From Rhodobiaceae bacterium (lineage in GTDB: Bacteria > Pseudomonadota > Alphaproteobacteria > MED-G09), in NCBI GenBank assembly GCA_002723035.1, contig PBNH01000021.1, positions 1,272-65,271 of the forward strand: a DNA stretch of 64,000 nt, written 5' to 3'. A program made the position numbers and the translations under genes. The notes beneath the pieces are model-generated. The model did not search any database, was not told where the DNA came from, and was given only the letters and a program-made list of their open reading frames with translations. Shown piece after piece: positions 27,229-48,348 of the stretch (positions are counted from its first letter, which is position 1; each line of letters begins with the position of its first letter).

Positions 27229-27250
27229 TTAATAGGATATTAGTAAAAAA

Positions 27251-27904: not shown

Positions 27905-27946
27905 AAAAAATGAATTAATTATGATTAATGGATTGTAAATTTTATC

Positions 27947-28561: not shown

Positions 28562-28697
28562 TGGACCTATTTATATTAGAACTTTTATAAGTAAAAAAAC
28601 TAATAACACACGAATCAAATTACTCTAGCCTTGAAAAATTTTAATTAATAACCAATTAAATAAAAATCAATATTTTTAATCAACGGAGGTGGATAAA

Positions 28698-28952: not shown

Positions 28953-28955
28953 TTA

Positions 28956-30317: not shown

Positions 30318-32026
30318 GTGAACCTTTGAAAAAACAAACTTTAAGCGAACACTGGTTTTGGGGTTCTCTATTTAAGAATAAAGGAACGTATGTTCAAATC
30401 GCACTTGCTTCAATTTTTATTAATCTATTTGGGTTAGCTAGTGCTTTTTATATCATGACTGTTTATGACAGGGTTATGCCAAATTCAGCCTATAATACTC
30501 TTATAGCTCTAACTATTGGTATGGCAGTAGTTATTTTATTTGATTTTTTAGTTAAACTTTTAAGAGCTTTTTTTGTTGATATGGCTGGCAACAGTATGGA
30601 AAAAGATATTAATGACTCTCTTTTTAAAAAAATAACTAGCCATGATCATAAATTTCTAAATAAAACATCAGGCGTAGCTCATACAGTAAGAGAGTTTGAG
30701 GGAGTAAGAGATTTCTTTACTTCTGCGAGTATGGTTGCATTTATTGATCTTCCATTTATGTTCTTATTTTTGTTTGTTATTTATACAATTGCAGGACCAT
30801 TAGCAATTGTTCCTATTCTTATTGTACCTTTAGTTTTAGGCGTATCAGCCATTATTCAACCAATTTTAAAAAGATCTAGCGATAAGAATCTGGTTAATCA
30901 ACAAGGTAAAATGATTGTTTTGCATGAATTATTGAATAATGTTGAAACTGTAAGAACCATAGCGGGTGGAAAATTTTTACATAATAAATGGAATTCTAGT
31001 GTTGAAAATCAAAGTAAAAATGCAACGACTGCAAGAGGTATTTCAAACTTTGCAGTTACGTTTTCTCAAACTAGTTTACAGATAGCTCAAGCAGGTATCG
31101 TTTGCTATGGAGTTGTACTAGTAGGATCATTGGATATAACATCGGGAGCATTAATTGCATGTGTTATTTTATCTGGAAGAGTATTATCACCTCTAGTTCA
31201 AGCCGGTCAATTACTTACCAAATTTAATCATGCCCTTTCAGCCTTCAAAAAAATTAATGAATTAATGCAGATTGAGTCAAGAGATGATCTTACTAAAGAC
31301 TTTAAAGCAACCTCTCTTACTAGTGGGAATATAAAAATAAAAGATTTATCATATGATATAAATGAGGTTGCTATTTTGAAAAATATTACCTTGGACATAA
31401 GTGATGGAGAAAAAGTAGGCTTTGTTGGTAATATTGGAAGTGGAAAAACATCGCTACTAAGAAATATAATTGGTTTTTATTTGCCTACTAAAGGAAATAT
31501 AACTTTGAGTGGGTATGATTTAAAAAATATCCCATCCAAAGAATTAAGAGACTATATTGGATATTGCCCGCAAAAGATTGATTTATTTACTGGTAGTATT
31601 TTAGAAAATATTAGCACAGGTATCCAGGGTATTACTGAAGATGATGTGATTGAAGCAGCAAAATTATCCTGCGCTCATGATTTTATCACAAAGATGCAGG
31701 GTGGTTATAATTATATTTTAAATGATAATGGTTCAAATTTATCAGGAGGTCAAAGACAGGCAATAGCTCTGGCGAGATGCTTGGTGAGAAAACCAAAGGT
31801 ATTAGTGTTAGATGAGCCTACCAGCTCTATGGATGGGAATACTGAAGAAAAGATAATTAATAACCTTCTATCTTTACCATACAAGCCAACCGTAATTATT
31901 TCAACACACCGAACAAACCATTTAGTAAGAGTTGATAAAATAGGTATCTTGATAGATGGCCAACTGGTTCAGTATGGACCAAGAGAGAGAATATTAAGAC
32001 AAGATAGTGAAAAGGTTGAAAATTAA
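30314..32026 (+). CDS. Type I secretion system ABC transporter (permease/ATPase fusion, PrtD/AprD-type, no C39 peptidase domain)
   Basis: 570 aa. N-terminal transmembrane domain, Walker A GNIGSGKTS, signature LSGGQRQ, Walker B VLVLDEPTS. Confidence 0.9.
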   Translation: MSEPLKKQTLSEHWFWGSLFKNKGTYVQIALASIFINLFGLASAFYIMTVYDRVMPNSAYNTLIALTIGMAVVILFDFLVKLLRAFFVDMAGNSMEKDINDSLFKKITSHDHKFLNKTSGVAHTVREFEGVRDFFTSASMVAFIDLPFMFLFLFVIYTIAGPLAIVPILIVPLVLGVSAIIQPILKRSSDKNLVNQQGKMIVLHELLNNVETVRTIAGGKFLHNKWNSSVENQSKNATTARGISNFAVTFSQTSLQIAQAGIVCYGVVLVGSLDITSGALIACVILSGRVLSPLVQAGQLLTKFNHALSAFKKINELMQIESRDDLTKDFKATSLTSGNIKIKDLSYDINEVAILKNITLDISDGEKVGFVGNIGSGKTSLLRNIIGFYLPTKGNITLSGYDLKNIPSKELRDYIGYCPQKIDLFTGSILENISTGIQGITEDDVIEAAKLSCAHDFITKMQGGYNYILNDNGSNLSGGQRQAIALARCLVRKPKVLVLDEPTSSMDGNTEEKIINNLLSLPYKPTVIISTHRTNHLVRVDKIGILIDGQLVQYGPRERILRQDSEKVEN

Positions 32027-33004
32027 ATGAAGAAATTTTTAGAAAAAATAAAGCTATCTAGTAATAATCTTTTTACCAACTTTAATAGAGAAAAGTTAGA
32101 AAATCTAATACCTTATTTGGTTCCAGAGTTTTGGGCATCAAATAGAAAATCTTTTTTACTATTTTGGTTTATTGGCATATTTACAATATTTTTTATAATT
32201 TGGGCATCTTTTGCAGAAGTAAACCAAGTGGTTAGAGCACAAGGAACTGTTGTTCCAGACTCTAAAGTACATCTTGTTCAGTCAGGTATTTCTGGTCCGA
32301 TACAAAAAATAAACATTAAACTTGATGATAGGGTTGAAAAAGGAGATATACTCTATTTAGTTGATCAAGCTAATACACAAAAGTTTTATGATTTAGCTAA
32401 GAAAGAATATGAAACTCGTTTAAGAAAAGTAGAAATATTGAAAAACCTTGTTAGAAGTGGATCAGATTCTGAATTTAGACTTTTAGATGAAGAGCTCTTA
32501 CTAGTAGATGCTGAGGGAAGGTACAATTCAGCAAAAAAAAATCTAGAATTCTCTACTGTAAGAGCTCCTATATCAGGAAGTATTAGCAACCAAAATGTTA
32601 CAAATATTGGACAGCTAGTATCCTCTGGTGATTTATTATCTGAAATTGTTCCAAAAGATGATTTCTTAAAAATTGAAGCTTTTATAAACCCTAAAGATAT
32701 TGCTTATGTTAGACAGGGGCAAAAGGCAAAAATAGCTTTCTCAGCTTATGATTTAGCAATATACGGACAATTTGAAGGTATTGTAAAGAAAGTAGCAGCC
32801 AATACAACTTCAAATCAAGAGGGAGAAACTTATTATCCTGCCATTATAGATTTAAATTATGATGACATAAAAAACTCCGATCGAAAAGTCATTCTACAAT
32901 CTGGAATGATTTCTGATGTATCCATCATTGGAGAGGAAAGAACAGTAATTAGCTACGTTCTCAACCCTATTACAAAACTCTCAAAAACAGCCTTACAAGA
33001 GTAA
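32027..33004 (+). CDS. HlyD-family type I secretion membrane fusion protein
   Basis: 325 aa. Single N-terminal transmembrane segment, coiled-coil region and beta-barrel MFP features. Start overlaps the ABC stop. Confidence 0.8.
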   Translation: MKKFLEKIKLSSNNLFTNFNREKLENLIPYLVPEFWASNRKSFLLFWFIGIFTIFFIIWASFAEVNQVVRAQGTVVPDSKVHLVQSGISGPIQKINIKLDDRVEKGDILYLVDQANTQKFYDLAKKEYETRLRKVEILKNLVRSGSDSEFRLLDEELLLVDAEGRYNSAKKNLEFSTVRAPISGSISNQNVTNIGQLVSSGDLLSEIVPKDDFLKIEAFINPKDIAYVRQGQKAKIAFSAYDLAIYGQFEGIVKKVAANTTSNQEGETYYPAIIDLNYDDIKNSDRKVILQSGMISDVSIIGEERTVISYVLNPITKLSKTALQE

Positions 33005-33005
33005 T

Positions 33006-33761
33006 TTATTTTTTTTCTAAATTTTTAACGTAATTAGATGCTTCCAATAAGGTATCAAACGTTCCTGTATCAAGCCACGAATAATTTGAGTCTAGCTTTT
33101 TTACATTTAATTTATTGTTATTTAAATAGATCATATTTAAATCAGTAATTTCATACTCACCCCTAGTCGATTTTTTTAGAGTATCAGCTAGTGATGAGGC
33201 GTTATTATCATATATATACAAACCAGTAACGATCAAATTCGATTTAGGTTCCTCTGGTTTTTCTTCAATTGATAAAATATTCGATTTTTCATCAAATTCT
33301 AAAACACCAAATCTTTCAGGTGTATTGGATTCTATGCAAAAAATTGTTGCACCTTGATTTTTATATATGGCATCAATTATTAACTCATTAAAATCTGGTC
33401 CGAAAAAGAGATTATCGCCCAGAATAAGGGCGACACTTGAGTCATTAATCCAGTCCTCACAAATTATTAATGACTGGGCAATACCTTCAGGCTTTTTTTG
33501 AATAATATAGTCAATGTTTATGCCCCATTCGTCCCCATATCCCAAAAGTTTTTTAAAATTTTCTTGATCTTCTTTTGTTGTAATAATCATTACATCTTTT
33601 ATTCCAGTATCAATTAAAACTGAAAGAGGATAAAAAATCATTGGTTTATTATATACTGGTAAAAGTTGCTTTGAAGTAATTTTGGTTAAGGGATATAAGC
33701 GCGTACCCGCTCCACCAGCAAGAATTATTCCTTTTATATTTTGATTATCATTTATACTCAT
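33006..33761 (-). CDS. rfbA: Glucose-1-phosphate thymidylyltransferase
   Basis: 251 aa. GIILAGGAGTRLYPLT N-terminal motif. Confidence 0.9.
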   Translation of the reverse strand: MSINDNQNIKGIILAGGAGTRLYPLTKITSKQLLPVYNKPMIFYPLSVLIDTGIKDVMIITTKEDQENFKKLLGYGDEWGINIDYIIQKKPEGIAQSLIICEDWINDSSVALILGDNLFFGPDFNELIIDAIYKNQGATIFCIESNTPERFGVLEFDEKSNILSIEEKPEEPKSNLIVTGLYIYDNNASSLADTLKKSTRGEYEITDLNMIYLNNNKLNVKKLDSNYSWLDTGTFDTLLEASNYVKNLEKK

Positions 33762-34712
33762 TTAAATCTCATCTAAAATTTGAGGCAATGCTTTTCTTAC
33801 AACTAATCTAACAGAGTCTTCCCATGAGGAAAATTTTATATTATTTTTTAAATAATAATCAAAATCGGTATAAAGCCTTGTATCAATAGATCTCTTAGCA
33901 TCAGATTTCCATTCACTTAATGTTATTGGTATTAATTCTGAATCTAAAGATTTTTGTAAAACAGTTTCTAATTCAGTAAAAATTATTTTAGCCACTAAGT
34001 ACCAAGTTGAAAAGCCAGGTGAACAAAAATGAAATATCCTTTCATTAGTATTTATATTTTTTTTATATAAATCAATTATTTGTACAATATTTCTTGAAAA
34101 ATCTTGAGCAAATGTCAAAGAAATTTTTTGATCAGAAACTACTCTTACACGACGATTTGTAAGTAACAATTTTATCATACTCTTAACGAAATTAGTTCCA
34201 TACTGGCTAAATACTGATGAAAAACGAATTATAATTCCCGATTTGTGATTTGTTAAAACAGCATCCTCACCTTCAGATTTAGTTAGGCCATAAAAATTAA
34301 TTGGTGCTTTTTTATCACCTGGGTAAAAAGGAGCATTCAAGGTTTTCCCAAAAACATAATCTGTTGAAATATGAATAAGTTTGATATTTTTAGTATCAGC
34401 CTCCTTTGATAAAATATCAACACCTGTATGATTAACCCTTTTAGTAATATCTTTTTTCTTTTCTGCGCCATTTACATCAGTAAATGCACCTAAATTAATA
34501 ATGTAATCAAAATTATCATTATTAAGGAAATTCTTAATTGATGCTTGATTAGTCAAATTAAGTGCTTTAGATGAAGGAAATGAAAAATTTAAATTTAATT
34601 TATGCTTTTGATTTTTTATTTCAGTCCCAACCTGACCTGATCCACCGATAACTAAAACTTTTAAATTTTTGTTATAGTTTTCCAAGTCTTTCACCCGAAT
34701 ATTTTTTTTCAT
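33762..34712 (-). CDS. rfbD: dTDP-4-dehydrorhamnose reductase
   Basis: 316 aa. STDYVF...YGLTKSEGE motifs. ORF-track start overlaps rfbB by 41 nt. Confidence 0.8.
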   Translation of the reverse strand: MKKNIRVKDLENYNKNLKVLVIGGSGQVGTEIKNQKHKLNLNFSFPSSKALNLTNQASIKNFLNNDNFDYIINLGAFTDVNGAEKKKDITKRVNHTGVDILSKEADTKNIKLIHISTDYVFGKTLNAPFYPGDKKAPINFYGLTKSEGEDAVLTNHKSGIIIRFSSVFSQYGTNFVKSMIKLLLTNRRVRVVSDQKISLTFAQDFSRNIVQIIDLYKKNINTNERIFHFCSPGFSTWYLVAKIIFTELETVLQKSLDSELIPITLSEWKSDAKRSIDTRLYTDFDYYLKNNIKFSSWEDSVRLVVRKALPQILDEI

Positions 34713-35721
34713 TTAAATTTAAATAATTTTTGTTATCTAAATACCATTTAACTGTATCCTCTATACCCTTTTCCCAAGAAAATTTTGGTTTCCAGCCTAA
34801 ATCTTTTATTTTATTATTATCAAGTGAATATCTAAAATCGTGCCCAGGGCGATCTTTGACAAAATTGATTAATTTATTGTATGAAAAATTCTCTAAAGGA
34901 AGTTTTTCATTTAAAATATTACAAATACTTTTTATAACCTCAAGATTCTCAATTTCACAATTACTACCGATATTATATTTTTCACCAACTTTTCCTTTAT
35001 CCAAAACTTTTAATAATCCACTTACATGATCCTCAACCCTAATCCAATCTCGTATCTGTTTACCATCACCAAAAACTGGAATTTTCTCCTTTTTTAGACA
35101 TTTATTTATAGTTAAAGGAATTAATTTTTCTGGAAATTGCCAAGGTCCATAATTGTTAGAAGTATTTGTTATTATTAGAGGTAATTGATAAGTTTTATAC
35201 CAAGATCTTACTAAATGATCCGCTGAGGCTTTTGAAGCTGAGTAAGGGCTGTTTGGCTTATAATTACTCTCTTCATTAAATGGTGAATCATGCTGACCAA
35301 GAGAACCATAAACCTCGTCGGTAGAGATATGAACAAATCTAAATTTTTTTTTATTTATGGTATTTAAATTTTTCCAGTACGAAAGGCTTTCACGTAGTAA
35401 ATTATATGTTCCTAATATATTAGTTTCAATAAAAGAACTTGGACCATCTATTGATCTATCAACGTGAGTTTCTGCAGCTAGATGAAAAACAGCATCAGGC
35501 TGAAAATTTGTAAAAATATCCATTATCTCTTTGCTTTTAGAAATATCGGCTTTGATTAACTTATAGTTATTTTTATTTGTAACTTGAGTAGCATTAATAT
35601 TTGCTGCATAAGTAAGATTATCAATATTCAGAATTTCAATATTATGATTTTTTGCTAGAGATCTAATTAGACAAGACCCTATAAAACCACAACCTCCAGT
35701 AATTAGTATTTTATTGTACAA
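34672..35721 (-). CDS. rfbB: dTDP-glucose 4,6-dehydratase
   Basis: 349 aa. ITGGCGFIGS...HLAAETHVDRS...YSASKASADHLV. Confidence 0.9.
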   Translation of the reverse strand: MYNKILITGGCGFIGSCLIRSLAKNHNIEILNIDNLTYAANINATQVTNKNNYKLIKADISKSKEIMDIFTNFQPDAVFHLAAETHVDRSIDGPSSFIETNILGTYNLLRESLSYWKNLNTINKKKFRFVHISTDEVYGSLGQHDSPFNEESNYKPNSPYSASKASADHLVRSWYKTYQLPLIITNTSNNYGPWQFPEKLIPLTINKCLKKEKIPVFGDGKQIRDWIRVEDHVSGLLKVLDKGKVGEKYNIGSNCEIENLEVIKSICNILNEKLPLENFSYNKLINFVKDRPGHDFRYSLDNNKIKDLGWKPKFSWEKGIEDTVKWYLDNKNYLNLNEKKYSGERLGKL

Positions 35722-35731
35722 AAAATTCCCC

Positions 35732-36283
35732 TTAAAAATCTATCTTCTCACGAATTTCATCCCAAAAAGGTAAGTTTAAATCTTTTTCAGATATAATTAA
35801 TCTCTTTTTATCAACGGGCCAATTTATTTCAAAAAAAGGGTCATCCCATTTTAAACCTTGTTCAAATTCTTTATTATAGTAATTATCAACTTTATAAATA
35901 ACTTTTGTATCGTTTTCTAATGTACAAAAACCGTGAGCGTAACCTCTGGGTATGTATAGCCAACCATCTTTTGGAGTTAGAACATATGAGGAATGAGTTT
36001 CAAAATTACTAGAATTTCTTCTGAGATCAATAAAAACGTCAAATATTTTACCTTTATCAACTTTTATTAATTTGGATTGGGCATAAGGATTTATTTGAAA
36101 ATGAATACCTCTTAAGGTATTTGAATAAATAGAAAAAGAGGAGTTATCTTGAATAAAATCATCCAATATTCCTAATTCTGCCATCTTTTTTTTGTTATAT
36201 ACTTCAGTGAAAGAACCTCTATTATCCTCAATAATATCGGGCAAAATATTTATAACATCATTAAAAATAACTTTCTTTCTCAT
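35732..36283 (-). CDS. rfbC: dTDP-4-dehydrorhamnose 3,5-epimerase
   Basis: 183 aa. RGIHFQ...KLIKV...RGYAHGF cupin motifs of RmlC. Confidence 0.9.
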   Translation of the reverse strand: MRKKVIFNDVINILPDIIEDNRGSFTEVYNKKKMAELGILDDFIQDNSSFSIYSNTLRGIHFQINPYAQSKLIKVDKGKIFDVFIDLRRNSSNFETHSSYVLTPKDGWLYIPRGYAHGFCTLENDTKVIYKVDNYYNKEFEQGLKWDDPFFEINWPVDKKRLIISEKDLNLPFWDEIREKIDF

Positions 36284-37566
36284 TTTAGCAAACTCTCAAC
36301 TAATTCTAGCTGTTTGGGTAAACTTATAGATTTCAAATCATAATTATTAACAATTGTTTTTCGTGCATTTTTTTTCATTAATTTATATTTTTTGGGATTA
36401 TCTAAAACATCGATAACTAACTTTGATAAACCCTCAACATCAAAGAAATCAACAAGCAAGCCATTTTTATTATTTTTTATAACCTCTTCTACTGGAGCAG
36501 TTTTTGAACCAATAATTAAAGCTTCAAGAGCCATTGCTTCAAGCATTGACCAAGAAAGTACAAATGGATAGGTCAAATAAACATGAACACTTGATATGGC
36601 TATAATCTTTAAAAAATTGCCATAATTAATTCTCCCAAGAAATAGAATTTTTTCTGGGTCAACTAAGTCGTTCTTAACTTCATTAAAATAAATATCCTTA
36701 AAACTTTCACCGGTATTTGAATTAGAGCCATAACTTACTTTATCACCGCCAATGATTAACACATAAGCATCAGGATGTTTTTTTTGTATCTTGGGTAGTG
36801 ACCTCATAAATGAATGATATCCTCTATAAGGCTCTAAATTCCTATTAACAAATGTGATTATTTTATTATCCTTTGATAACTTTATCTTTTCTTCTGATGG
36901 TAATGTCAGAGTAATGTCACCAGTACTTACAGGACGAATAATATCTGTATCGATACCATCATGAATAACATTAATTTTTTTATGAAGAATTTTTGGGGCT
37001 GTTGATTTTTGAAATTTTGTAGGACTTATTAGTAAATCGGAATCTAAATATGACATCATTCCAGGTGCATTTCTTGCCCTTAATCTAGAAAATAACTCCA
37101 GACTAGGTTTTGGATAGTGTGGTTCATTTGTATCAAAGTCTACATCTGAATTAATGGTATTATAATAGAATTCAAAATAGGATAAAAGTTTTACATTAGG
37201 CCATATTTCTTTTACTAAAAAAGTTTCTCCCCAACCTGGATGATCAATTATTAAATCTGGACTAAAACCATTATTTTTTAACTCCAGGCATTTTAAAGAT
37301 ACGGCTTCAGCCCTTATCATTTTTGTTTCAAATTCAGTAGCCAGTGTGTGAATATTTTTGGATGTTCCTTTTTTTATATCATATAAATGATTTGTAATAT
37401 CGCTAAAATTACTCAACCTTTCTTCAGTTTCAACTGGATCTTTATTGCTGACAGATAAACTGTGAATTTCATATTTTTTTTTACTACTCAGAAATGGTGC
37501 CAGTGACTTATACTGTCCAGGAAAATTTTGATGAATAAATAATATTTTCTTTTTAGCCATCGTCAT
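36280..37566 (-). CDS. Glycosyltransferase (GT4-like)
   Basis: 428 aa. C-terminal SMLEAMALEALIIGS...GLLVD (E-x7-E-like GT-B motif). ATGA overlap with rfbC. Confidence 0.65.
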   Translation of the reverse strand: MTMAKKKILFIHQNFPGQYKSLAPFLSSKKKYEIHSLSVSNKDPVETEERLSNFSDITNHLYDIKKGTSKNIHTLATEFETKMIRAEAVSLKCLELKNNGFSPDLIIDHPGWGETFLVKEIWPNVKLLSYFEFYYNTINSDVDFDTNEPHYPKPSLELFSRLRARNAPGMMSYLDSDLLISPTKFQKSTAPKILHKKINVIHDGIDTDIIRPVSTGDITLTLPSEEKIKLSKDNKIITFVNRNLEPYRGYHSFMRSLPKIQKKHPDAYVLIIGGDKVSYGSNSNTGESFKDIYFNEVKNDLVDPEKILFLGRINYGNFLKIIAISSVHVYLTYPFVLSWSMLEAMALEALIIGSKTAPVEEVIKNNKNGLLVDFFDVEGLSKLVIDVLDNPKKYKLMKKNARKTIVNNYDLKSISLPKQLELVESLLK

Positions 37567-39253
37567 TGCCTCTTGTAGTTAAATATCCAAACTTAATAAG
37601 CCAAATAATAGTTTCAAAAACTTTAGTTTCTTCTATATTTGTACTATTAATAACTTGATTAACATTTAATTTATTATTTGTAGAAAATAATTCATAGATA
37701 GATTTAATATTATCCTCCGTCGGTAAATCTCTTTGAGCATATTCAACACTTTTAAATTTTAAAAGCTCATTAAATGATAAACTATTAATATTATCTAATT
37801 TGTATAATACAGTTTTTTTGCTCAGAATATTTGAGGGATACGATGAAAAAGTAAAAAATGGATCTTGTCTATCACTGGGTAAACTCTTTAAACAGAACGT
37901 TTTGTAGTTTAATGATACTGTTTCCCTAATTTTATTTAATTCAGATGATAAATTCCTATACATTGATAGGATTACAGGCCAATTAAAATCTTCTTTAGCT
38001 CTTATTTTTGCAGATTCACCAAATTTCTTTCTTTGTTCATCATTCGTAACTAAAATTCTCAACTTTTCAATACAATCTTTTATATCCACACTAACCTTTT
38101 GAACTGACAGACCAACATAAAGATCATAATTAATATCATTCATCATATATCTATAAGCAATATCTTCTCCATAACCATCAGGCAAGGAAATAGTCTTTGC
38201 TCTAAAACCATCTACACTATCTCTTGCTGTTGATTTATAACCATCCCAATCCGACACTAAAACTGGAAGACCAGCAGCCATACCCTCCAAAGGCGTTAGA
38301 CCAAATGTCTCTTGAATATTATCGCTTAACGAAACAAAAATATCCCCTGCAGCCAAGGTTTTATGTTTATTATCCTGATCTTTACCATCCAAAAAATGAA
38401 ATTTAATTGATGGGCATATTTTTATACCTTCCTCAACAAAGGATTCCTTTACGAAATCATTTGCAAACCAACCAGTTTGAATAATATGAATTTTTTGACC
38501 ATCTTTCAGCTCTTTAGAAATCTCTTCAATAGCTAAATACATAGGCAGATGATGAGCCTTAGCATGAAAGCTTAATCGCCCAACATAAGCTATAACAATA
38601 TCTTCATCATTTATATCAAGTGATAATCTGGATTTTTTCTTAAAATCCTCCGAATAATTAAATTCATCAACATCTAATCCCAATGGAATAACAGGTAATA
38701 AGGGTAGCTCAGGTTTGGAAATATTAAATTTAGATTTTAACCTTTGATATCTATGATCGATTATTTTTTCAACAGTATCTAATACACAACTTGAAGTACA
38801 GATTATTGCATCCCAGGGCATAATATCTGACATTATAATATTTGATATACCAGACATAACCGCATGAGAGGCTGTGGTATGAGTAATTCCAACTAAACTA
38901 TATTTATTATGTCCATGAATACTTCTTTTACTTGCAAAATCATTAATTCCAGGCCCTGGTAGAAATATCCCACCATATGGTTCAGACTTATGGGGTTGAT
39001 TATAAGGAATAAAATCAACTTCCAATTGTTGGTCCTTCTTCATAAGTGGTTTAACTTTTTTGAGTAAAAGTTCTTTTTGTTCCTGATTTTTGATATAAGC
39101 ACTTATTCTTTTAGGATCATCCTTAATTAAAGCCTTCAAAAAAGACCAGCCAGCAGCTTGACGACCCATTATTCTATTACCTTTTATATCATAACCCTCG
39201 TCATCATAATAAATGGACCAATACGGAAATTCACTTTGATAATCATCAGCCAT
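37553..39253 (-). CDS. Glycosyltransferase family 4 protein with about 150-aa C-terminal extension of unknown function
   Basis: 566 aa. ETFGLTPLEGMAAGLPVLVSDWDG canonical GT4 motif. Confidence 0.7.
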   Translation of the reverse strand: MADDYQSEFPYWSIYYDDEGYDIKGNRIMGRQAAGWSFLKALIKDDPKRISAYIKNQEQKELLLKKVKPLMKKDQQLEVDFIPYNQPHKSEPYGGIFLPGPGINDFASKRSIHGHNKYSLVGITHTTASHAVMSGISNIIMSDIMPWDAIICTSSCVLDTVEKIIDHRYQRLKSKFNISKPELPLLPVIPLGLDVDEFNYSEDFKKKSRLSLDINDEDIVIAYVGRLSFHAKAHHLPMYLAIEEISKELKDGQKIHIIQTGWFANDFVKESFVEEGIKICPSIKFHFLDGKDQDNKHKTLAAGDIFVSLSDNIQETFGLTPLEGMAAGLPVLVSDWDGYKSTARDSVDGFRAKTISLPDGYGEDIAYRYMMNDINYDLYVGLSVQKVSVDIKDCIEKLRILVTNDEQRKKFGESAKIRAKEDFNWPVILSMYRNLSSELNKIRETVSLNYKTFCLKSLPSDRQDPFFTFSSYPSNILSKKTVLYKLDNINSLSFNELLKFKSVEYAQRDLPTEDNIKSIYELFSTNNKLNVNQVINSTNIEETKVFETIIWLIKFGYLTTRGNDDG

Positions 39254-39869
39254 TACTAGATCTCTTTTTATTTACATGTTCTGTAATTTTAGCTGATAAT
39301 TCTTCTTTGGTTAATGATTTTGACTTATAAGCTAAAGCCCATAAAGCATAAGCGTTCTTATCTTCGCCAATAATAAAACTCTTAAAACCTGACTGATTTA
39401 ATATATCATTCATGCTCTCAGAGGTAAAACCGTTACGGTGAGCCATATGCTCATTCCCAGCTGCCATTGAAGGTCTATGCCCATAGAGAATATCTAGAGG
39501 GTAAATATCACCTGATGGTGCAGTGTAGAGTTTTCTTCTGATATTACCCTCTCCAATTAGTTTGCAAACCGACTTAATATCAGGACAAGTAAGTACCAAA
39601 AAACCTTCATCGTTTAAAACTCTTTTAAATTCTCGCAATGTTTGGATAACCTCATGAGCAAAAACATGCTCGATATTATGCGAAGAGTAAACAGCATCGA
39701 AGGTAGAATCTTCAACACTGGACATATCTTGAATTGAACTAATAATATCAGGATTAACATCTGGATTAATATCTAAACGAACTTCATTCCAATCATCAGA
39801 ATTAAAGACAGAAGTAGTATTATCTTTATAATACATACCAGGACCTACATGCAAAAAAGTTTTAGTCAT
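39246..39869 (-). CDS. Putative class I SAM-dependent methyltransferase (first gene of the glycosylation operon)
   Basis: 207 aa. FLHVGPG motif-I-like and LVLTCPD motif-II-like segments. 8-nt overlap with the downstream GT4. Confidence 0.5.
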   Translation of the reverse strand: MTKTFLHVGPGMYYKDNTTSVFNSDDWNEVRLDINPDVNPDIISSIQDMSSVEDSTFDAVYSSHNIEHVFAHEVIQTLREFKRVLNDEGFLVLTCPDIKSVCKLIGEGNIRRKLYTAPSGDIYPLDILYGHRPSMAAGNEHMAHRNGFTSESMNDILNQSGFKSFIIGEDKNAYALWALAYKSKSLTKEELSAKITEHVNKKRSSNG

Positions 39870-39903
39870 AGTACTTATTATAAATTAAAGAAATTATTTT
39901 GCA

Positions 39904-39930
39904 TAAAAAAAAGGGAAGCCGAAGCTTCCC
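39904..39930 (-). terminator. Rho-independent terminator of the giant RTX gene
   Basis: On the minus strand, 21 nt after the stop: GGGAAGC-UUCG-GCUUCCC (7-bp GC-rich stem, UUCG tetraloop) followed by U9. Confidence 0.85.
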
Positions 39931-39951
39931 TTAATTTCAATAAGTTATTGA

Positions 39952-42900
39952 TTAGACCATTAAGAAGTCTGCGGCAACAAATGCACCGTCAGTAATAGTC
40001 TGATCAAACATAACAACCGGTATTAAGTCAGCTGCAACGTTTGGATTAGTTGTTCCATCAACATGATAAATAACAGTTACATTTGTATCATAAGCAATCA
40101 AATAATAATCATCATCGGCACCATCAGATGTAATACTTGCCGCAGTAGCTCCAGATGATAAAGTTTTAAGTAATTCAACACCTGTTCCTGCTGCAAAGTC
40201 AGTAGCAAGGTTACCATCAGCAACTGTAATACCTGTAAGCTCAACAATATCAATAGCCGCAGTATTAATATTAATACCATCAGTATCAGTAGCACTTCCA
40301 ATATTAAAGGTAGCACCGTTATCAACAGCAGTTACTGCTAGAGTTACCAATACTGGAGCAACATTATCACTACCAGCTAACTCTGAAGCTGTATTCTCAA
40401 GATGAACAACGTCACCAACAGTTGTACCAGCATCCTCGAAATCATTGATTTCTGTTCTGTTAGCTGTAGCAACACCAAGAGCTAAGAAAGTATCATCTCC
40501 TGTACCACCTGTAAGAACATCAACACCTGTACTTGAAACAATTGTATCGTTACCAGCACCAGCATCAATAATATCAGCACCTGCACCTGAAGTAATGCTA
40601 TCAGCACCTGCACCGGATGTAATAGTATTAGCACCAGCACCGGCTGTAATAATATCAGCACCAGCACCAGAAGTAATAGTATCATCACCTGAACCAGTAG
40701 TGATTATGTCATTACCATCAAGAGTTGTAATTGTAGTAGCAGTATCGTCATCACCGGATACAGTAACGTCAATATCAGCACCATGGAAACTGTCTAGGCC
40801 AGAAAGTGTGATTGCATAGTCATCAGAGTTAAGAGTTGAGTCACCATCCATGTCGATGTAAAGAACATCGTTATCTTTAGCAAATACAAAACTACCACTT
40901 GAATTATTCATTGCATTAACTGCTTCACCAGCATTAGACACGTCACCTTTATCAGCTAGGATAAAGGATGTTGTATTACCATTTGCAACCGCACCTGAAG
41001 AAACTACAAGACTAATTGAGTCACCGTTTGTAACTTGAGCGCCTGTAGTAGCATTTAGTGTTGATTGCGTAAAGTCTGTGATTGTATCTTTGGTATTACC
41101 AGATGAGTCTGCGATAGTGTCATACTTAAAGATATCATTACCAGCACCACCAGTAAGATTATCGGCACCTGCGTCACCTTCAATGGTATCAGTTCCATCA
41201 CCACCACTAAGAACATCATTTCCAGCAGCACCGTTGATAATATCATTACCAGCACCACCGTTTACAATATCATTACCAGCGCCGCCATTTAATGTATCAG
41301 CACCAGAGTTACCAGTAATTGAGTCATTACCTGAACCACCTGTTAATGTATCACCTACAGTAGTACCACCACCTGTAATGGTGTCATCACCTTTTGAACC
41401 AATAAGTTGGTCAGATGCAGTACCACCAGTAATAGTAAAGTCAATATCTACTGTATCAACAGAAGTATTAACATTGAAAGTTGCAGATCCAACAGTTTTA
41501 TTGGATAAATCAATCGTCATAGTTCCTGTATTTAAGGAAGCTGTACTATTAACTACGATTTGGATATCAGCAGCACCACTTGTAACTGCATCAACTGTAT
41601 ATATTTCAACTTTTTCAATTCCAGTAACAACATTGAAGTTTATAACACCAGTTACAGCAGCATCATTTTCAAGTTGGATGGTATCAGTACCAGCACCACC
41701 AGCGATAGTATCATTTGTTGCTAGATGTGTTGTACCATCAAACCTGAAAGTATCATCACCGGAACCACCAGTGAAACTATCAGCATTGACATTACTACCA
41801 TTATCAATAATTAAGAATGCACCATTGGATACAGCAGAACCGTCAATAGTTGTCACATTATCAGTTGTTGTACTTGTTATTGTTAAGGTATCTAAGCCAA
41901 GATTAGTAAATGTTTCGTTACCAAAGGTAAGGCTTGTTGTATTACTTCCAAGAGTAATTTTTTCAATACCAATTAATTGAGAAAGTTCAGGAGCGGTAAG
42001 TGTAAGATCAGCCGCTTCTGTAAATGATAATGTATCTGTACCAGCACCACCATCAACAGTTTCAACACCACCAGCAACTTTAAAGTGTACGTCATCTGCA
42101 ACGATAATAATATCATTACCATCACCAGCAGTAATGTGATCAACACCAGCTCCACCTGTTATGCTGTCAATACCAGTACCACCTTCAATGGTATCATTAG
42201 CAGCACCACCTATTAGTGTATCATTACCACCATTACCAGTTAACGAGTCAGTACCTGAACCACCTGTTAGACTATCACCAAATCCACCACCAATAGCTGT
42301 CAATTTAGTGTTGTCACTATTTGTAACAGATAGTAATTCACCATTTGTAAGTGTTGTAACATTAGCATCCAGAGCTGAACCATCAACTGTGATTGCTGCT
42401 CCTAAGAAACCAGAGGCAATAGTAACAGTAACATCACCAGCACTTTGATCGACAGCAAGGTCAGTAACTACAATCTTTTCAACATTAGTTACATTTGCAC
42501 CAATAGCACCAGTAGTTGAGTCACCAGTTGTATCAGCATCATCATCATTTTCAAGATAAATAATATCAGAACCAGCATTACCATCAATAGTATCATCAGC
42601 AGTTAAGCTCTCAGTAGCTTGGAAAGTAAATGTATCATCTGAGGATGAACCAACTAATTTTAGATTACCAGCTGCAGTTGCTTTAACGCTAATAGCTGTG
42701 CTCATTAATGAAGCACCAGCTGTGTCTTCACCACTAGACAAAGTACCAGCTCCAGCAAAATTAAATGCAAGGCCAGGGTTATTGGCAATAACAGTATCAC
42801 TTATTGTGAAGTCACTACCTTCTGGGATTGTCCAATTTTCAGTATTAGTAATAGTAGAAAGTTGAGCTGCAGTTAGATTTTGAGCACCTGTGAAGGTAAC

Positions 42901-45900
42901 AGTATCATTACCAGCACCACCGTCGATGATATCAGTACCAGATGCTGTTGAATATTCAGTTTTAGCATTAAGTGTAAAGGTATCATTACCTGCTCCACCT
43001 AACATACTGTCTAAGCCTTCATTACCGTCAATAGTATCAGCACCTTCACCACCTAAGATAGTATCATTAGTTGTACCACCATCAAGAATATCAGCACCAC
43101 CACCAGAAGTTACGCTTAGTGAAATCTGTGAACCATCACCAATTAGAGTGAACACTTCATCAGCTGATGTTGAACCATCAAGTTCGGTAGCATCGATAGT
43201 AAGAAGTGACTCAGTAGCAGTTGTTATATTTTCATTCACTGTAAGTTTTGCATCTGTACCAGCACTTGTAGAATCTTTAATAATAACTTTTTCTACTTTG
43301 GTAACGTCATCAAGATCTGCAGTTGTAGCGCCATCAGCAGTAAGCTCAAGAGTATCAGTTCCTGAACCACCTGTAATTGTAAAGCCGTCAACAACATCGG
43401 TTGTATTACCTTTAACAGTTAAACCAACATTTGCTGAGTTGATAATTGCTTTATTATTAGTAGCACCAACATCGGTAACTGTAACAGTTGTATCTGCAGT
43501 CCATGTTTTACCTGTACCACCAAGTGTTAGAATTTGAGCAGATGCTGAATCAATTTTAAACGTAGTAGCACCACCCATACCACCATCAGCAGTAATGTTA
43601 ATAGCACCAATTGGATTAATTATTTCAATATTACTTACACCGCCCATAACTGATGAATTTGAAATACCAGCAGTTGTTGTAAGGGTATCAGTTCCTGCTC
43701 CACCATCAATTATATCAGTATTAGCAAGGCTTGATTCTGCAGTAATAATATCATTACCGTCGCCTGCTGTAATGTTATCAGCACCAGTACCTAGAGTAAT
43801 GGTATCGTTACCAGCACCTGAATCAATTGTGTTAACACCAGCATTAGCGTCGATAATATCATTACCAGCACCAGATGTTAGTGTATCGTTTTTCGTACCA
43901 AGTGTAACAATATCACTAGCAGCACCTGTTTTAACATCAAGAGGTGTTGCAGCGCTTGTACCTGTAATAGTAACAGCATTAAGAGCTGTAAGTGTATCAG
44001 CGTTAATTGTTAAAACACCAGTTCCAGCAGGAGTACCAATAGAGTAAGCTCCGGTAACAATTGTTGGAGCAGCAGTTGCACCAAATGCTACTAAATTAAT
44101 TGTTTCGAAAACATCATTGTTGGTATCAAAAGTTGTTGTACCAGTTGCAGTATTCACGATATTTAATACATCGCTAGTACCTGTACTACCTGTAATATCA
44201 GTATCAGTTCCAAATGAACCATTATTAGCTTGAACAGTAAGTTGAACATTTGCATTATTGTTAATTACATCTGCAGATGCAGCATCTGATCCAATTTTAA
44301 CTGTTGTCGCATTTGTATAACCATCATTAAGATTGATTGTTTGAACTGAGTCATGTTGCACATCAATAGTAGTTGCTGAAATGTTTGATTCAAGTGTTAA
44401 TGTATGTGCAGTGTCGATCGCAACAACTTCAACATTACTTAATCCACCAAAAACAGTAGATGAAGCACCAGCATTTGTATAGGTACCATCTAATCTTAAG
44501 GTATCTGTTCCATCACCACCATCATATGTATCGGTTCCAGCCCATGTTCCATCAAAGTCAGCAGTATCATTACCACCACCCATTGAAAGTGTATTTTTAC
44601 CAGTAGCTACAGCAGTTAATGTATCTGCAGCAGAACTACCAGTAATTGTTACATTTGAAGCACCAGGAGCATTTGTTAATGTAAGACCACCAGTATTTGC
44701 AGAAGCGTCAACTGTTGTAACATTTGAGTCTAAAGCAGCAGTAATTGTTAATGCTGAACCACCGGTTACAGTTAATGTAGGAGTTAAAACACCATCAATT
44801 TGAAGATCTGCAAGAGTATTTGCAACAGAAACACTATCAATAGTTAAAGACTCAAGAGCACTTGATGTTGAAGTGCTGTCGTCTGTAATAGCTACAGTGG
44901 TTGAGTTTGTTCCAGAGAGTTTCAATGTCATTGAGTCTGCAGCACCTGTTAAAGCTGTCGAGGCATAATTAACAGTAGTTGTATTTGGAGCTGATTTAAC
45001 TGTTAAATCAACTGGATTTGCTAAGTCATTAAAAGTAACACCATCACCACCAGCTATATTAGCTAATGAAGTAATACCTGAAATACCAGCAAGAGCGATA
45101 GTTAATGTATCATCATCGGCAATAGTATCATCTGCGATGCTATTAGTAGCTTGGATAACTTCTATGTTAGATAATTGAGGAATTAGAGTTAATCCATCAG
45201 CTGCTGATGCACTTTTCACAGTTAATGTATCTGTACCAGCACCACCATCTAGAACATCATAGTCATTAAGACTATCGGCTGTAGTTCCATCAAAAGAGTC
45301 ATTACCACTTCTACCTGTGAATGTATCAACACCGGTTGTGAGTGTGAATGCAGCTGTAGTAGCTGATGAACCATCATTATTAATAAGAATTATATCGCTA
45401 GAAATTGAATTTGAATTAGAATCAAAAACACTAACTTTCATACCTTCAATACCCTCAACAGTTGAGTCAGTTGTTGGAGTTACAGAGAAGGTTGTTGAAG
45501 TTGAGCCAGCGGCTATTGTTGCTGTACCGGATAAAAGATCAACATCAGTTGTTCCAGCTTTATCGACAGTACCACCATTATCGTCACCAATTACAGTCCA
45601 GGAGAAAGAAGTGTCAGCAGTCACAGCGACACTAGATGTAATTGTAAATACGGCGGCATCACCTTCTGTTACGCTAGTAGCAGATTTTGCTACAGAGTAT
45701 GAAGCACCACCACCACTTGACCATGCAGTACCTTGAACTGTTACGTCAGAAGCACCAGCCACAGATCCAGAAGTTGGAAGTGAAGCAACACCAGCTCCAG
45801 CGGCAAAGGCTGCAAATGAGCTTACTGAACCAGATGTTCCTGCAGTTGCATTACCACCTAAGTCATAAGTAAAATTACTTGCACCATTAATCGTTACAAC

Positions 45901-46140
45901 AGCACCGTTGCTTAATGTTAATTGCACAGCATCAGCTGCAAATTTAGTTGAAGAAACAGATAAACCGTTTACTAACTGAATTTTATTCGCACCACTTGTA
46001 TCAACAATTGTAATTGCTGCATTAGCTTCGATTGAATTTGATAATATGTATGTATCATCTCCACCTAGGCCTCTGTATGTGGTTCCATTATTTGAAGGTA
46101 CGATGATGTCCGCACCAGAACTGTGATTAATAGTCGCCAT
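39952..46140 (-). CDS. Giant (2062 aa) RTX calcium-binding-repeat protein, cysteine-free and highly acidic, no signal peptide. Putative T1SS-secreted adhesin or S-layer-like protein.
   Basis: At least 6 blocks of tandem GGxGxDxUx nonapeptides (for example GGAGNDIVNGGAGNDIINGAAGNDVLSGGDGTDTIEGDAGADNLTGGAGNDIF). Thr/Gly/Ala/Ser/Asp-dominated. Acidic C-terminal segment (candidate secretion signal). Strong Shine-Dalgarno GGGAG 7 nt upstream of the ATG. Confidence 0.85.
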   Translation of the reverse strand: MATINHSSGADIIVPSNNGTTYRGLGGDDTYILSNSIEANAAITIVDTSGANKIQLVNGLSVSSTKFAADAVQLTLSNGAVVTINGASNFTYDLGGNATAGTSGSVSSFAAFAAGAGVASLPTSGSVAGASDVTVQGTAWSSGGGASYSVAKSATSVTEGDAAVFTITSSVAVTADTSFSWTVIGDDNGGTVDKAGTTDVDLLSGTATIAAGSTSTTFSVTPTTDSTVEGIEGMKVSVFDSNSNSISSDIILINNDGSSATTAAFTLTTGVDTFTGRSGNDSFDGTTADSLNDYDVLDGGAGTDTLTVKSASAADGLTLIPQLSNIEVIQATNSIADDTIADDDTLTIALAGISGITSLANIAGGDGVTFNDLANPVDLTVKSAPNTTTVNYASTALTGAADSMTLKLSGTNSTTVAITDDSTSTSSALESLTIDSVSVANTLADLQIDGVLTPTLTVTGGSALTITAALDSNVTTVDASANTGGLTLTNAPGASNVTITGSSAADTLTAVATGKNTLSMGGGNDTADFDGTWAGTDTYDGGDGTDTLRLDGTYTNAGASSTVFGGLSNVEVVAIDTAHTLTLESNISATTIDVQHDSVQTINLNDGYTNATTVKIGSDAASADVINNNANVQLTVQANNGSFGTDTDITGSTGTSDVLNIVNTATGTTTFDTNNDVFETINLVAFGATAAPTIVTGAYSIGTPAGTGVLTINADTLTALNAVTITGTSAATPLDVKTGAASDIVTLGTKNDTLTSGAGNDIIDANAGVNTIDSGAGNDTITLGTGADNITAGDGNDIITAESSLANTDIIDGGAGTDTLTTTAGISNSSVMGGVSNIEIINPIGAINITADGGMGGATTFKIDSASAQILTLGGTGKTWTADTTVTVTDVGATNNKAIINSANVGLTVKGNTTDVVDGFTITGGSGTDTLELTADGATTADLDDVTKVEKVIIKDSTSAGTDAKLTVNENITTATESLLTIDATELDGSTSADEVFTLIGDGSQISLSVTSGGGADILDGGTTNDTILGGEGADTIDGNEGLDSMLGGAGNDTFTLNAKTEYSTASGTDIIDGGAGNDTVTFTGAQNLTAAQLSTITNTENWTIPEGSDFTISDTVIANNPGLAFNFAGAGTLSSGEDTAGASLMSTAISVKATAAGNLKLVGSSSDDTFTFQATESLTADDTIDGNAGSDIIYLENDDDADTTGDSTTGAIGANVTNVEKIVVTDLAVDQSAGDVTVTIASGFLGAAITVDGSALDANVTTLTNGELLSVTNSDNTKLTAIGGGFGDSLTGGSGTDSLTGNGGNDTLIGGAANDTIEGGTGIDSITGGAGVDHITAGDGNDIIIVADDVHFKVAGGVETVDGGAGTDTLSFTEAADLTLTAPELSQLIGIEKITLGSNTTSLTFGNETFTNLGLDTLTITSTTTDNVTTIDGSAVSNGAFLIIDNGSNVNADSFTGGSGDDTFRFDGTTHLATNDTIAGGAGTDTIQLENDAAVTGVINFNVVTGIEKVEIYTVDAVTSGAADIQIVVNSTASLNTGTMTIDLSNKTVGSATFNVNTSVDTVDIDFTITGGTASDQLIGSKGDDTITGGGTTVGDTLTGGSGNDSITGNSGADTLNGGAGNDIVNGGAGNDIINGAAGNDVLSGGDGTDTIEGDAGADNLTGGAGNDIFKYDTIADSSGNTKDTITDFTQSTLNATTGAQVTNGDSISLVVSSGAVANGNTTSFILADKGDVSNAGEAVNAMNNSSGSFVFAKDNDVLYIDMDGDSTLNSDDYAITLSGLDSFHGADIDVTVSGDDDTATTITTLDGNDIITTGSGDDTITSGAGADIITAGAGANTITSGAGADSITSGAGADIIDAGAGNDTIVSSTGVDVLTGGTGDDTFLALGVATANRTEINDFEDAGTTVGDVVHLENTASELAGSDNVAPVLVTLAVTAVDNGATFNIGSATDTDGININTAAIDIVELTGITVADGNLATDFAAGTGVELLKTLSSGATAASITSDGADDDYYLIAYDTNVTVIYHVDGTTNPNVAADLIPVVMFDQTITDGAFVAADFLMV

Positions 46141-46371
46141 TTATTTTCTCCCTAAAATAACAACAAGTCGTTGTACTCATAAAAATTTCGATAGCAAAAA
46201 TCTGCTAACGAATCACAAAATCCTACATTTCGTCAAAAACGTCAATATAAAATAATTTATATTGTAACCAAATGTAACAAACTTTATCAACCTTTTTTTA
46301 AATTTTAATTATGTCTTAAATAAGGCGGTTGATAAAAAAACATTAACCTTATTAAATTGTTTCAAATTTCC

Positions 46372-48348
46372 TTACGTTAAATTTGAGTCAGTAACGATTT
46401 CAACTGTATATGTAGTTGCAGTCCAATCAGTATCAAATGACTCTTCAATATTAGGTAAAACTAACTTACCACTTTGTGCATTACTATCAGGTGCAAATAA
46501 TATTTGTGTTCCTGAAATACCATCTGATGTAACTTCAACATTTGTTAACTGGTCAAATTCTTGAGTGGTTAAATTTGAAGTTCCATTAACTACAACAAGT
46601 GTTAATTTATCAGTAGCAGCGTCAAAGCCATCTATAGTTACTGTATATGCACCTTCCTCAGAGACACCCGAACTAGAAACTTCATACCTAAATTCTTCAG
46701 CTGCAGAAGTTGCTGTTACAGTTGTATCTTCTGAAACTGAAATATTTACAATTGTATATGATGCAGCTGGAGTTTCCTCAGCTGGAGTTTCTTCTGCTGG
46801 AGTTTCTTCTGCTGGAGTTTCCTCGGCTGGAGTTTCCTCAGCTGGAGTTTCTTCTGCTGGAGTTTCTTCTGCTGGAGTTTCCTCGGCTGGAGTTTCCTCG
46901 GCTGGAGTTTCTTCGGCTGGAGTTTCCTCAGCTGGAGTTTCTTCAGCTGGAGCTTCTGTAGCTGGAGCTGGAGCAGCTTCATCTCCGATTGATGAACCAA
47001 AAACAATATTTAAGGCTTTATCTTTATCGGTAACGCCATCAAGGGTTAAAGTTGTGCTGCTTCCATCAGCATCAGGAGCAAAATATATAACTGTCTTATT
47101 ATTAATTTCATCAATAGAATAATCATGTGACGCATTTGCTTCAAATCTGCTTAAGTCATAACCGCTAGCTATACCAGCACCAAGAACAATTATTTTATCT
47201 GTAGATAAGTCAAAACCAGAAATTGTAACATTACCATCAGCACCGACAACATTTGATCCGCTTGAGGTCGCATCGTAAACAAAAGTCTCAGAATCTGCAC
47301 TCGCGGTTACACTTGAGGAGTCAATATCTACACGACTACCAGAAATTGCTGGGGATGAAATTGAAAAAGTAAGATCTATTGAGGATAAGTCTGCATCAGC
47401 AATTCCATCAATATCAATAGAACCACTATTGCCATCTGCGTTAACTCCAAAATCAATTCTTGTTGAGTTAATACCTGTGGTTACATCAACACCTAATGTT
47501 GACAAAAGATCTTCTTTTGAATATCCGGCTGGTAAAGTTTCTGTTTTAATTATAATTCTATCAATTGCAGCGTCAAAATTTGTGATAGAAGTATTTCCAT
47601 CAATTGCAACAGGCACACCATTTAAAAACTTTACAGAAAATTCAAAAATTTCACCCGCAGATGAACTTGCAACGCTTCCGCTTGATAAATCTATAACTGG
47701 CGAACCGGCATCAGCAACTTCATCAGCGGTATTGATAACAACAGTTGATGAGTCAGAAACACCTTTTAAAGTAATAGTACCGGTTGCATCATTATCACTT
47801 CCAAGGTTAACAATAGTATCGCCGTTAATATCAGATGCGACATCAACATTCGATGATCCACCAGAAGTAAATGATGAAGGAGCACCAGTTCCTCTAAGAA
47901 CAAGCACATCATTGCTTGCATCAAAATCAGATATTATAACATTACCATCTTGAGCAGAAGTAACGGACCCACTTGCTGCAAAAGTAACATCATATAAATA
48001 AGTGTCTGCATCAGCTGTTGCAGTATAACGGCCAGCATTAGCATTAATCCCAACAGTTGAAGAACCATCTCCACCTGAGCTCGAACCACCAGAGCCTGAG
48101 TCTGATCCACTAGAACCTGAGTCTGATCCACCAGAACCTGAGTCTGGAGTTGGACTTACAGGTCCATCATAACCTCCACCTCCACCACCTCCACAAGCGG
48201 CAAGGATCATTGGAAGTGTAATTGCACTAAAGTATCCTAATTTACTACGAGAAATTTTGATTAGATTTTTATCTTCTAAAGCAAGATTTTTATCTTTAAC
48301 ATTTTTGGGTGATAGTAAATTTTGTCCGTTCATTATAAATACTCCCAT
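46372..48348 (-). CDS. Putative surface lipoprotein with Gly7, Ser/Gly linker and (PAEET)n repeat
   Basis: Lipobox-like ...ITLPMILAAC followed by GGGGGGG and (DSGSxGS)3. Internal ATG at 48333 with a GGGAG Shine-Dalgarno is a likelier start. Mid-protein EETPA x ~13. Confidence 0.65.
   Translation of the reverse strand: MGVFIMNGQNLLSPKNVKDKNLALEDKNLIKISRSKLGYFSAITLPMILAACGGGGGGGYDGPVSPTPDSGSGGSDSGSSGSDSGSGGSSSGGDGSSTVGINANAGRYTATADADTYLYDVTFAASGSVTSAQDGNVIISDFDASNDVLVLRGTGAPSSFTSGGSSNVDVASDINGDTIVNLGSDNDATGTITLKGVSDSSTVVINTADEVADAGSPVIDLSSGSVASSSAGEIFEFSVKFLNGVPVAIDGNTSITNFDAAIDRIIIKTETLPAGYSKEDLLSTLGVDVTTGINSTRIDFGVNADGNSGSIDIDGIADADLSSIDLTFSISSPAISGSRVDIDSSSVTASADSETFVYDATSSGSNVVGADGNVTISGFDLSTDKIIVLGAGIASGYDLSRFEANASHDYSIDEINNKTVIYFAPDADGSSTTLTLDGVTDKDKALNIVFGSSIGDEAAPAPATEAPAEETPAEETPAEETPAEETPAEETPAEETPAEETPAEETPAEETPAEETPAEETPAEETPAASYTIVNISVSEDTTVTATSAAEEFRYEVSSSGVSEEGAYTVTIDGFDAATDKLTLVVVNGTSNLTTQEFDQLTNVEVTSDGISGTQILFAPDSNAQSGKLVLPNIEESFDTDWTATTYTVEIVTDSNLT
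46766..46975. repeat. 15-bp tandem repeat x 14 (12 near-perfect plus 2 degenerate) encoding (PAEET)n. Contains a duplicated 60-bp higher-order block.
   Basis: gctggagttt(c/t)(c/t)tc(a/t/g) units. Third-position pattern a,t,t,g of units 1-4 repeats exactly in units 5-8. Confidence 0.95.
48083..48145. repeat. 21-bp tandem repeat x 3 encoding (DSGS[G/S]GS)3 linker in the lipoprotein gene
   Basis: gaaccaccagagcctgagtct / gatccactagaacctgagtct / gatccaccagaacctgagtct. Confidence 0.8.

Follow-up and report, generated by a model that had tools for sequence, protein, structure and literature searches.

A strain-variable, in-frame 15-bp tandem repeat predicted to encode a disordered spacer in a putative lipoprotein of a marine PS1/OCS116-clade alphaproteobacterium

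The number of repeats in the Neisseria lip gene varies between gonococcal strains and has been used for typing. The AAEAP low-complexity region of the lipoproteins Lip (H.8 antigen) and Laz is O-glycosylated (PMC9239064, PMC3916388), and the serine-aspartate (SD) repeats of the staphylococcal Clf/Sdr surface proteins are unstable, copy-number polymorphic without frameshifts (PMC3324548), and glycosylated by dedicated glycosyltransferases (PMC3794999). Repeat-number change in coding regions has been reviewed as a fast and reversible source of variation in cell-surface proteins (PMC3899988). Variable coding tandem repeats of this kind constitute a class and not a family. Here, we describe a 15-bp tandem repeat from contig PBNH01000021.1, of which a 64-kb stretch was analyzed as a whole (hereafter the window). 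The repeat lies on the minus strand in a gene (46372..48348) for a predicted lipoprotein of 658 amino acids (aa) with four beta-rich domains (D1 to D4), and the host is a PS1/OCS116-clade marine alphaproteobacterium. The tract is very probably an in-frame coding variable-number tandem repeat (VNTR) that encodes a disordered acidic spacer separating D4 from D1-D3 of this conserved protein.

Comparison with the described systems revealed partial likeness to each. As in Lip and Laz, tandem Ala/Pro/Glu-rich pentapeptide repeats of low complexity and non-globular character are carried by a lipoprotein. However, sequence homology is lacking, the unit being AAEAP in Neisseria and PAEET here; the neisserial repeats directly follow the lipid anchor, whereas those of the window lie between D3 and D4 with a separate Gly/Ser repeat next to the anchor; and Neisseria is a pathogen, in contrast to the free-living marine oligotroph considered here. 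NCBIfam and Pfam scans gave sub-threshold low-complexity matches only, and on sequence grounds the protein is an analogue of Lip/Laz and not a member of that family. The locus shares with the SD repeats an in-frame coding minisatellite in a surface protein, and the S/T/D-rich units of distant homologs of the window protein look very similar to SD repeats. The staphylococcal proteins differ in being Gram-positive LPXTG proteins in which the SD region, placed between anchor and ligand-binding domain, crosses the cell wall, and in having another unit and period with no homology to the repeat described here. The string PAEETPAEET gave no match in the searched literature, and the searched literature on the repeat sequence and on PS1-clade genomics contained nothing on this lipoprotein. 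As far as that literature shows, the lipoprotein and its PS1-clade host are undescribed as a variable-repeat case.

The strongest tandem array of the window was placed by Tandem Repeats Finder (TRF) at 46764..46967, with a period of 15, 13.6 copies, 91% matches, and a score of 289. In the minus-strand frame, the full array with its degenerate ends extends head to tail at a 15-bp period over 46756..46980. It comprises 12 perfect PAEET units (46771..46950, minus strand, aa 467-526), two degenerate 5' units at the start of the spacer, EAAPA (46966..46980) and PATEA (46951..46965), and a degenerate 3' unit, PAASY (46756..46770), that runs into D4. The near-perfect repeat of 14 units put forward in the original prediction therefore corresponds to 12 PAEET units plus degenerate end units. 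Variation among the 12 units was limited to unit positions 6 and 9, which are the third codon positions of Ala (GCN) and of the first Glu (GAR), so that the differences are synonymous, as had been claimed for one or two sites in twelve units. A higher-order duplication was also identified (46766..46899): the 60-bp, four-unit blocks 46771..46830 and 46831..46890 are identical, and exact identity at a lag of 60 extends over 74 bp (46766..46839 equal to 46826..46899), reproducing the predicted recurrence of the tca/tct/tct/tcg pattern of units 1-4 in units 5-8. The lag-15 self-identity of 46766..46975 was 0.897 compared to a mean of 0.314 (standard deviation 0.038, maximum 0.451) for the other 210-bp tiles of the window, corresponding to a z of about 15. 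By both TRF and lag-15 identity, the tract has the units of at least 6 bp and the high identity, beyond chance, that define a coding minisatellite. Hairpin-driven instability was also considered and rejected: CAGCTG palindromes gave terminator-like matches, yet the DNA fold was no better than that of shuffled sequence (z = -1.1).

Closely related loci displayed different numbers of units on nearly identical flanks. The flanks of locus L006 matched the window at 100% over 6.4 kb and at 99.9% over 5.4 kb, and its array contained two units compared to 12 in the window; only units 1-2 are retained, the outcome of removing the DNA from unit 2 to unit 12, which has the same sequence. L005 (99.4-99.9% identical) carried 8 units, its array being that of the window shortened by exactly one 60-bp block. 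Arrays of 2, 8, and 12 units on 99.4-100% identical flanks support the proposal that repeat number varies between strains, and the copy-number comparison suggested as its check, made across related genomes and long-read-derived contigs, returned counts that differed and were not uniform. Of 14 locus pairs whose 1,280-nt flanks were 100% identical, 10 had different arrays, and so did 25 of 30 pairs whose flanks, compared over about 1.3 kb, were at least 98.5% identical. The near-identical pairs L002/L014, L016/L017, and L018/L019 differed in the order or composition of units (e.g., with unit types written as letters, 'dcfgfd' in L002 versus 'dgfdccdgcgfd' in L014). Four long-read-derived contigs, namely L008, L009, and L010 (each about 1.48 Mb) and L011 (on a contig of 25 kb, obtained from another reef sample), contained 11, 12, 12, and 13 units of different unit types. 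Among 113 proteins, the count of (E/D)(E/D)(T/A/P) units was most often 12 and lay between 2 and 14; in DNA loci it reached 17. The array changes much faster than point substitutions accumulate.

The repeat spacer was retained at the D3-D4 junction in about 170 homologs, with a length of 20 to ~95 aa. Among 114 homologs, the D1-D3 core measured 357-359 aa and D4 125-129 aa; the spacer measured 20-76 aa and the N-terminal tether 13-34 aa. This Gly/Ser tether is a second variable repeat in the same gene: L002 and L014, with 99.9% identical flanks, differed by one GGSGS unit, and the units were GGSTD or GGTTD in other lineages. Two VNTRs within one gene could serve as a fine-scale strain marker.

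The 658-aa open reading frame (ORF) and its homologs define the gene holding the repeat. Homologs usually start at MNGQ, corresponding to window position 48333 and five residues downstream of the ORF start; an exact-protein look-up of the 658-aa ORF gave no match because gene callers use the MNGQ start. The protein P0001 and the TARA contig L007 hold the same sequence as the window gene, L007 being 100% identical to the window across 12 kb. A collection of 5.8 billion proteins yielded 279 homologs at E<=1e-3, the best 120 of which were 64% to 100% identical. A genome scan identified the gene in single-cell genomes labeled 'uncultured PS1 clade bacterium' and 'OCS116 cluster bacterium' as well as on long-read-derived contigs of about 1.48 Mb, and the guanine-plus-cytosine content was ~31%. 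The PS1/OCS116 clade is a widespread marine bacterioplankton lineage with an uncultured majority. Assemblies of about 1.48 Mb imply small genomes in which repeats are expected to be rare, and those that occur are therefore informative. A 63%-identical gene copy was also found on a 3.5-kb contig (L004, CAZYIL010000167.1) in a metagenome-assembled genome labeled Marinoscillum sp. (Bacteroidota), which is probably a mis-binned contig.

The order of elements in the protein is lipobox, Gly/Ser tether, D1, D2, D3, (PAEET)n spacer, and D4, all on the minus strand. The lipobox L-A-A-C (aa 49-52, 48193..48204; ...KISRSKLGYFSAITLPMILAAC|GGGG) follows a K/R-rich n-region and a hydrophobic stretch and agrees, as read from the sequence, with the pattern [LVI][ASTVI][GAS]C after a hydrophobic h-region and basic n-region. 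Residues I43-P46 and I48-C52 were invariant in an alignment of 28 sequences (A1), and the protein is accordingly described as a lipoprotein with predicted lipidation. Mean column identity in this full-length alignment was 83% with linker columns included, and many columns were invariant. AlphaFold2 predicted four beta-rich domains (aa 100-214, 215-336, 337-455, and 528-640; predicted local distance difference test score, pLDDT, 70-90) and two disordered segments with pLDDT<50 (aa 53-99 and 460-527). The former of these includes the Gly/Ser-rich tether between the anchor and D1 (48052..48192; TRF 48073..48146, period 21). D1 (aa 100-214, 47707..48051), D2 (aa 215-336, 47341..47706, homologous to D1), and D3 (aa 337-455, 46984..47340, homologous to D1 and D2) were delimited by AlphaFold, hhalign, and hmmsearch, and D4 (aa 528-658, 46375..46767), beyond the spacer, was the most conserved domain. 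The four domains of ~115 aa are mutually homologous, with hhalign probabilities of 89-98% and further support from hmmsearch and alignment. The repeat had been interpreted as the stalk of the lipoprotein, and this part of the original prediction did not hold: the spacer lies between D3 and D4, about 400 residues from the lipid anchor, and the anchor-proximal tether is the separate and itself variable Gly/Ser repeat.

No curated Pfam or NCBIfam model covers the ~115-aa domain. Pfam, NCBIfam, and PDB matches to the repeat (Extensin_1, Rv3852, VHL, and histone tails) were dismissed as compositional, low-complexity hits; Extensin_1 (PF02095) scored 26 bits against a cut-off of 105 and the NCBIfam Rv3852 family 23.8 bits against a cut-off of 100, the repeat alone being covered in both cases. 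Foldseek with the full model gave a weak match to the serralysin PrtC (E about 3e-3, root mean square deviation 18 Å), which is a hint only, and weak matches to AlgE R-modules. D3 modeled alone gave a poorer model (mean pLDDT 56.6). The N-terminal extension ahead of the hydrophobic core of the signal peptide (48238..48348, aa 1-37; MNGQNLLSPKNVKD...KISRSK) is unusually long and conserved, several of its columns being invariant among homologs.

The window spacer consists of 74 residues of A, E, P, and T with a single D and has a net charge of about -27. Unit variants were lineage-specific: 'a/e' predominated in L008, L009, and L013, whereas L033 and L034 carried mainly 'h/p' and L010 and L018 mainly the TTEET unit 'b'. 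Blocks of several units recurred as ceed-ceed in the window, lrlg-lrlg in L032, and acca-acca in L027. Lineage-specific units and recurring blocks point to concerted evolution by misaligned replication or unequal recombination. Near-identical 15-bp units could misalign during replication (slippage) or recombination (unequal exchange) and so gain or lose whole units or multi-unit blocks with the reading frame intact, and the same processes would homogenize the units within a lineage. The unit length of 15 bp means that a change in repeat number leaves the frame unbroken. The recent duplication by unequal crossover that had been proposed agrees with the block duplication in the window and with the blocks of other strains, as does slippage.

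Homologs at about 60% identity carried other repeats at the D3-D4 junction, including (TDT[AT])n, (TDTS)n, (STDDTx)n, (TDTTTA)n, and (STD)n, with units of 3, 4, or 6 aa. Median spacer length was 57-80 aa in the six repeat-unit classes with at least two members, and 36 aa in the single locus classed as (STD)n. In the 980-aa homolog P0121, extra folded sequence replaces both disordered linkers; Pfam Calx-beta was matched between D3 and D4 (aa 685-735, 2 matched stretches), and the sequence itself, as read, suggests two Calx-beta domains at each linker position. The different units, the similar median lengths, and the Calx-beta replacement indicate that what is conserved is a spacer, flexible or extended, whose reach stays roughly constant, and the Calx-beta domains in the linker slots of P0121 support a pure spacer role of the repeats. 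Selection appears to favor a flexible spacer of a certain approximate length and not its sequence. The locus offers a clear natural experiment in which only the existence of a disordered spacer and its approximate length are conserved, the unit having been replaced several times, once by folded domains.

The VNTR reading had to be weighed against the possibility that the array is stable in nature and that the copy-number differences are short-read assembly artefacts arising from collapse or chimeric de Bruijn walks. Tandem repeats are a known source of assembly error, and short-read assemblers can collapse or mis-walk them (PMC6868369). Several observations weigh against natural variation. Most alleles derive from short-read metagenome assemblies prone to collapse, the shortest (2-5 units) exclusively so; the L005 array differs from that of the window by the loss of one exact 60-bp block, the product expected when the duplication is collapsed in any k<=74 assembly; 11 of 62 related contigs break off 75-200 nt into the array (L020, L025, L026, L029, L037, L038, L042, L044, L046, L051, and L057), indicating that assemblers struggle at the site; and clustering of the protein database at 90% identity overstates how often protein pairs with identical flanks have spacers of unequal length. 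The same alleles also recurred in independent samples (L010 and L011, which share an identical 12-unit TTEET allele across two reef samples, L013 and L021, and L052 and L058), so that the array is not hypermutable on very short time scales. However, the long-read-derived contigs disagree among themselves in both count (11, 12, and 13) and unit type, collapse cannot generate the differences in unit order or composition of L002/L014, L016/L017, and L018/L019, and whole lineages have swapped PAEET for TTEET or for units of another period. The two-unit allele comes from a k=119 contig, and at no k>=29 do its junction k-mers occur in the 12-unit allele; the Sanger-era GOS contig L061 spans a complete array. 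An artefactual origin of the variation is therefore very unlikely, although some short alleles may be short-read assembly collapses, and contigs of the PS1/OCS116 clade should be handled with the warning that they break or collapse at this repeat. Long-read copy numbers also need caution: in L008 (a polished broomfield long-read contig of 1,476,981 bp) the upstream peptide-transporter gene was split into three ORFs and the end of the lipoprotein was frameshifted (P0022 ends ...RNYSRC), probably through residual indel errors. Two further alternatives concern the reading frame. Three long ORFs in other frames that had been listed as spurious by-products of the repeat were indeed present, at 46565..47122 (plus strand), 46710..46961 (plus strand), and 46746..47006 (minus strand). 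The first, a 185-aa antisense (AGVSS)n ORF opened by the repeat, could be the real gene of the region, and the variable sites of the repeat are third codon positions in the plus frame as well; the sharing of third positions by the antisense and true frames makes a codon-position test uninformative. Yet stops interrupt the plus frame in L001, L008, L009, L010, and L013, the ratio of synonymous to non-synonymous changes is poorer (164:99 versus 189:67 in the minus frame), and hundreds of homologs share the conserved domains of the minus-strand protein, making a plus-strand gene virtually impossible and confirming the extra ORFs as spurious. A highly repetitive tract within a surface-protein gene might also be a contingency locus, switching expression on and off by frameshift. 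The unit of 15 bp is a multiple of three and D3 and D4 stood in one frame without stop codons in 47 of 47 junction-spanning loci. These results argue decisively against on/off phase variation and leave such a switch extremely improbable. With the array inside the coding region and every allele in frame, the tract has the in-frame unit in a real gene that characterizes a coding VNTR and lacks the signature of a phase-variable contingency locus.

Other alternatives accept the in-frame VNTR and address the role of the encoded segment. Length variation could be kept by diversifying selection, for example through evasion of phages or grazers recognizing the surface complex. This would agree with the position of the gene in a cell-surface cluster that also encodes a type I secretion system (T1SS), enzymes for dTDP-rhamnose, glycosyltransferases, and the giant RTX protein, with the two separate variable linkers in one protein, and with the turnover of unit types between lineages. 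However, the high conservation of the folded domains in A1 is unusual for a target of diversifying selection and the similar median spacer length across the six multi-member classes points to stabilizing selection on length, so that we consider this explanation rather unlikely. Equally doubtful is a role of the spacer mainly as a mucin-like O-glycosylation platform, in which copy number would set the count of glycan sites. All spacer variants are Thr- or Ser-rich (TTEET, TDTA, and STDDTT), two GT4 glycosyltransferases and rmlABCD are located within 13 kb, and O-glycosylation of the Ala/Pro-rich low-complexity regions of Lip and Laz (PMC9239064) and glycosylation of the staphylococcal SD repeats by SdgA and SdgB (PMC3794999) provide precedents. 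On the other hand, no oligosaccharyltransferase was identified in the window, polysaccharide synthesis explains the neighboring glycosyltransferases equally well, and the Calx-beta domains in the slot of one lineage favor a pure spacer. A disordered acidic spacer of selected presence and rough length remains the favored reading of the tract.

The next gene downstream of the lipoprotein, 231 bp away, encodes an RTX protein of 2062 aa (39952..46140, minus strand). Downstream DNA was present in 12 of the 15 related loci examined (drawn from L012-L060), and the RTX gene followed the lipoprotein gene in all 12; its conserved N-terminus (MATINHSSGADIIVPS...) was found in every one, even where identity falls to about 60% and other genes lie upstream. 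A four-domain profile of the lipoprotein retrieved 202 proteins among 1.84 billion representatives, and many of the matches placed the ~115-aa domain at the extreme C-terminus of RTX or serralysin proteins of 1000-2900 aa. In P0147, P0126, P0135, P0128, and P0154, the RTX N-terminal domain is naturally fused to a D4-like domain; P0147 aligned with the former across 129 aa at 64% identity (E 4e-54) and with D4 across 121 aa at 55% identity (E 2e-45). The likeness of the lipoprotein to RTX/type I secretion substrates lies in this domain recurring at their C-terminus, but it is without GGxGxD nonapeptides, and a lipobox signal peptide takes the place of the C-terminal secretion signal. It gave no HemolysinCabind match, G.G.D motifs numbered 0-4 per lipoprotein in the related loci checked, and no homology of its domains to the neighboring RTX protein was detected by hmmsearch or hhalign.

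Gene adjacency and fusions suggest that the lipoprotein and its RTX neighbor may function jointly and may interact. Adjacency in 12 of 12 loci, the natural fusions, and the replacement of both linkers by rigid Calx-beta domains would be consistent with the lipoprotein as a dedicated lipid-anchored RTX partner in which D4, at the end of the acidic spacer, binds the conserved RTX N-terminal domain and the VNTR linkers act as adjustable tethers, a model that we offer tentatively as a possible but not the likely arrangement. If it were true, the two VNTR linkers would set the distance of an RTX layer or adhesin from the membrane. A VNTR in a surface protein is as such biologically ordinary, and the partnership of lipoprotein and RTX protein with adjustable tethers is the more interesting lead. 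The uncharacterized lipoprotein and the giant RTX protein probably form a complex at the cell surface.

The gene order over 27154..48348 was tRNA-Val (27154..27228), TPR, 2OG-Fe(II) oxygenase, T1SS (TolC/ABC/HlyD, 28956..33004), rmlA/D/B/C, two GT4 glycosyltransferases, a methyltransferase, RTX, and lipoprotein. The region looks like a single cell-surface gene cluster and is possibly an island beside the tRNA. The RTX gene itself contains three arrays with a 27-bp period (40552..40731, 41126..41306, and 42111..42229), which are the DNA image of its 9-residue calcium-binding repeats (15 HemolysinCabind stretches).

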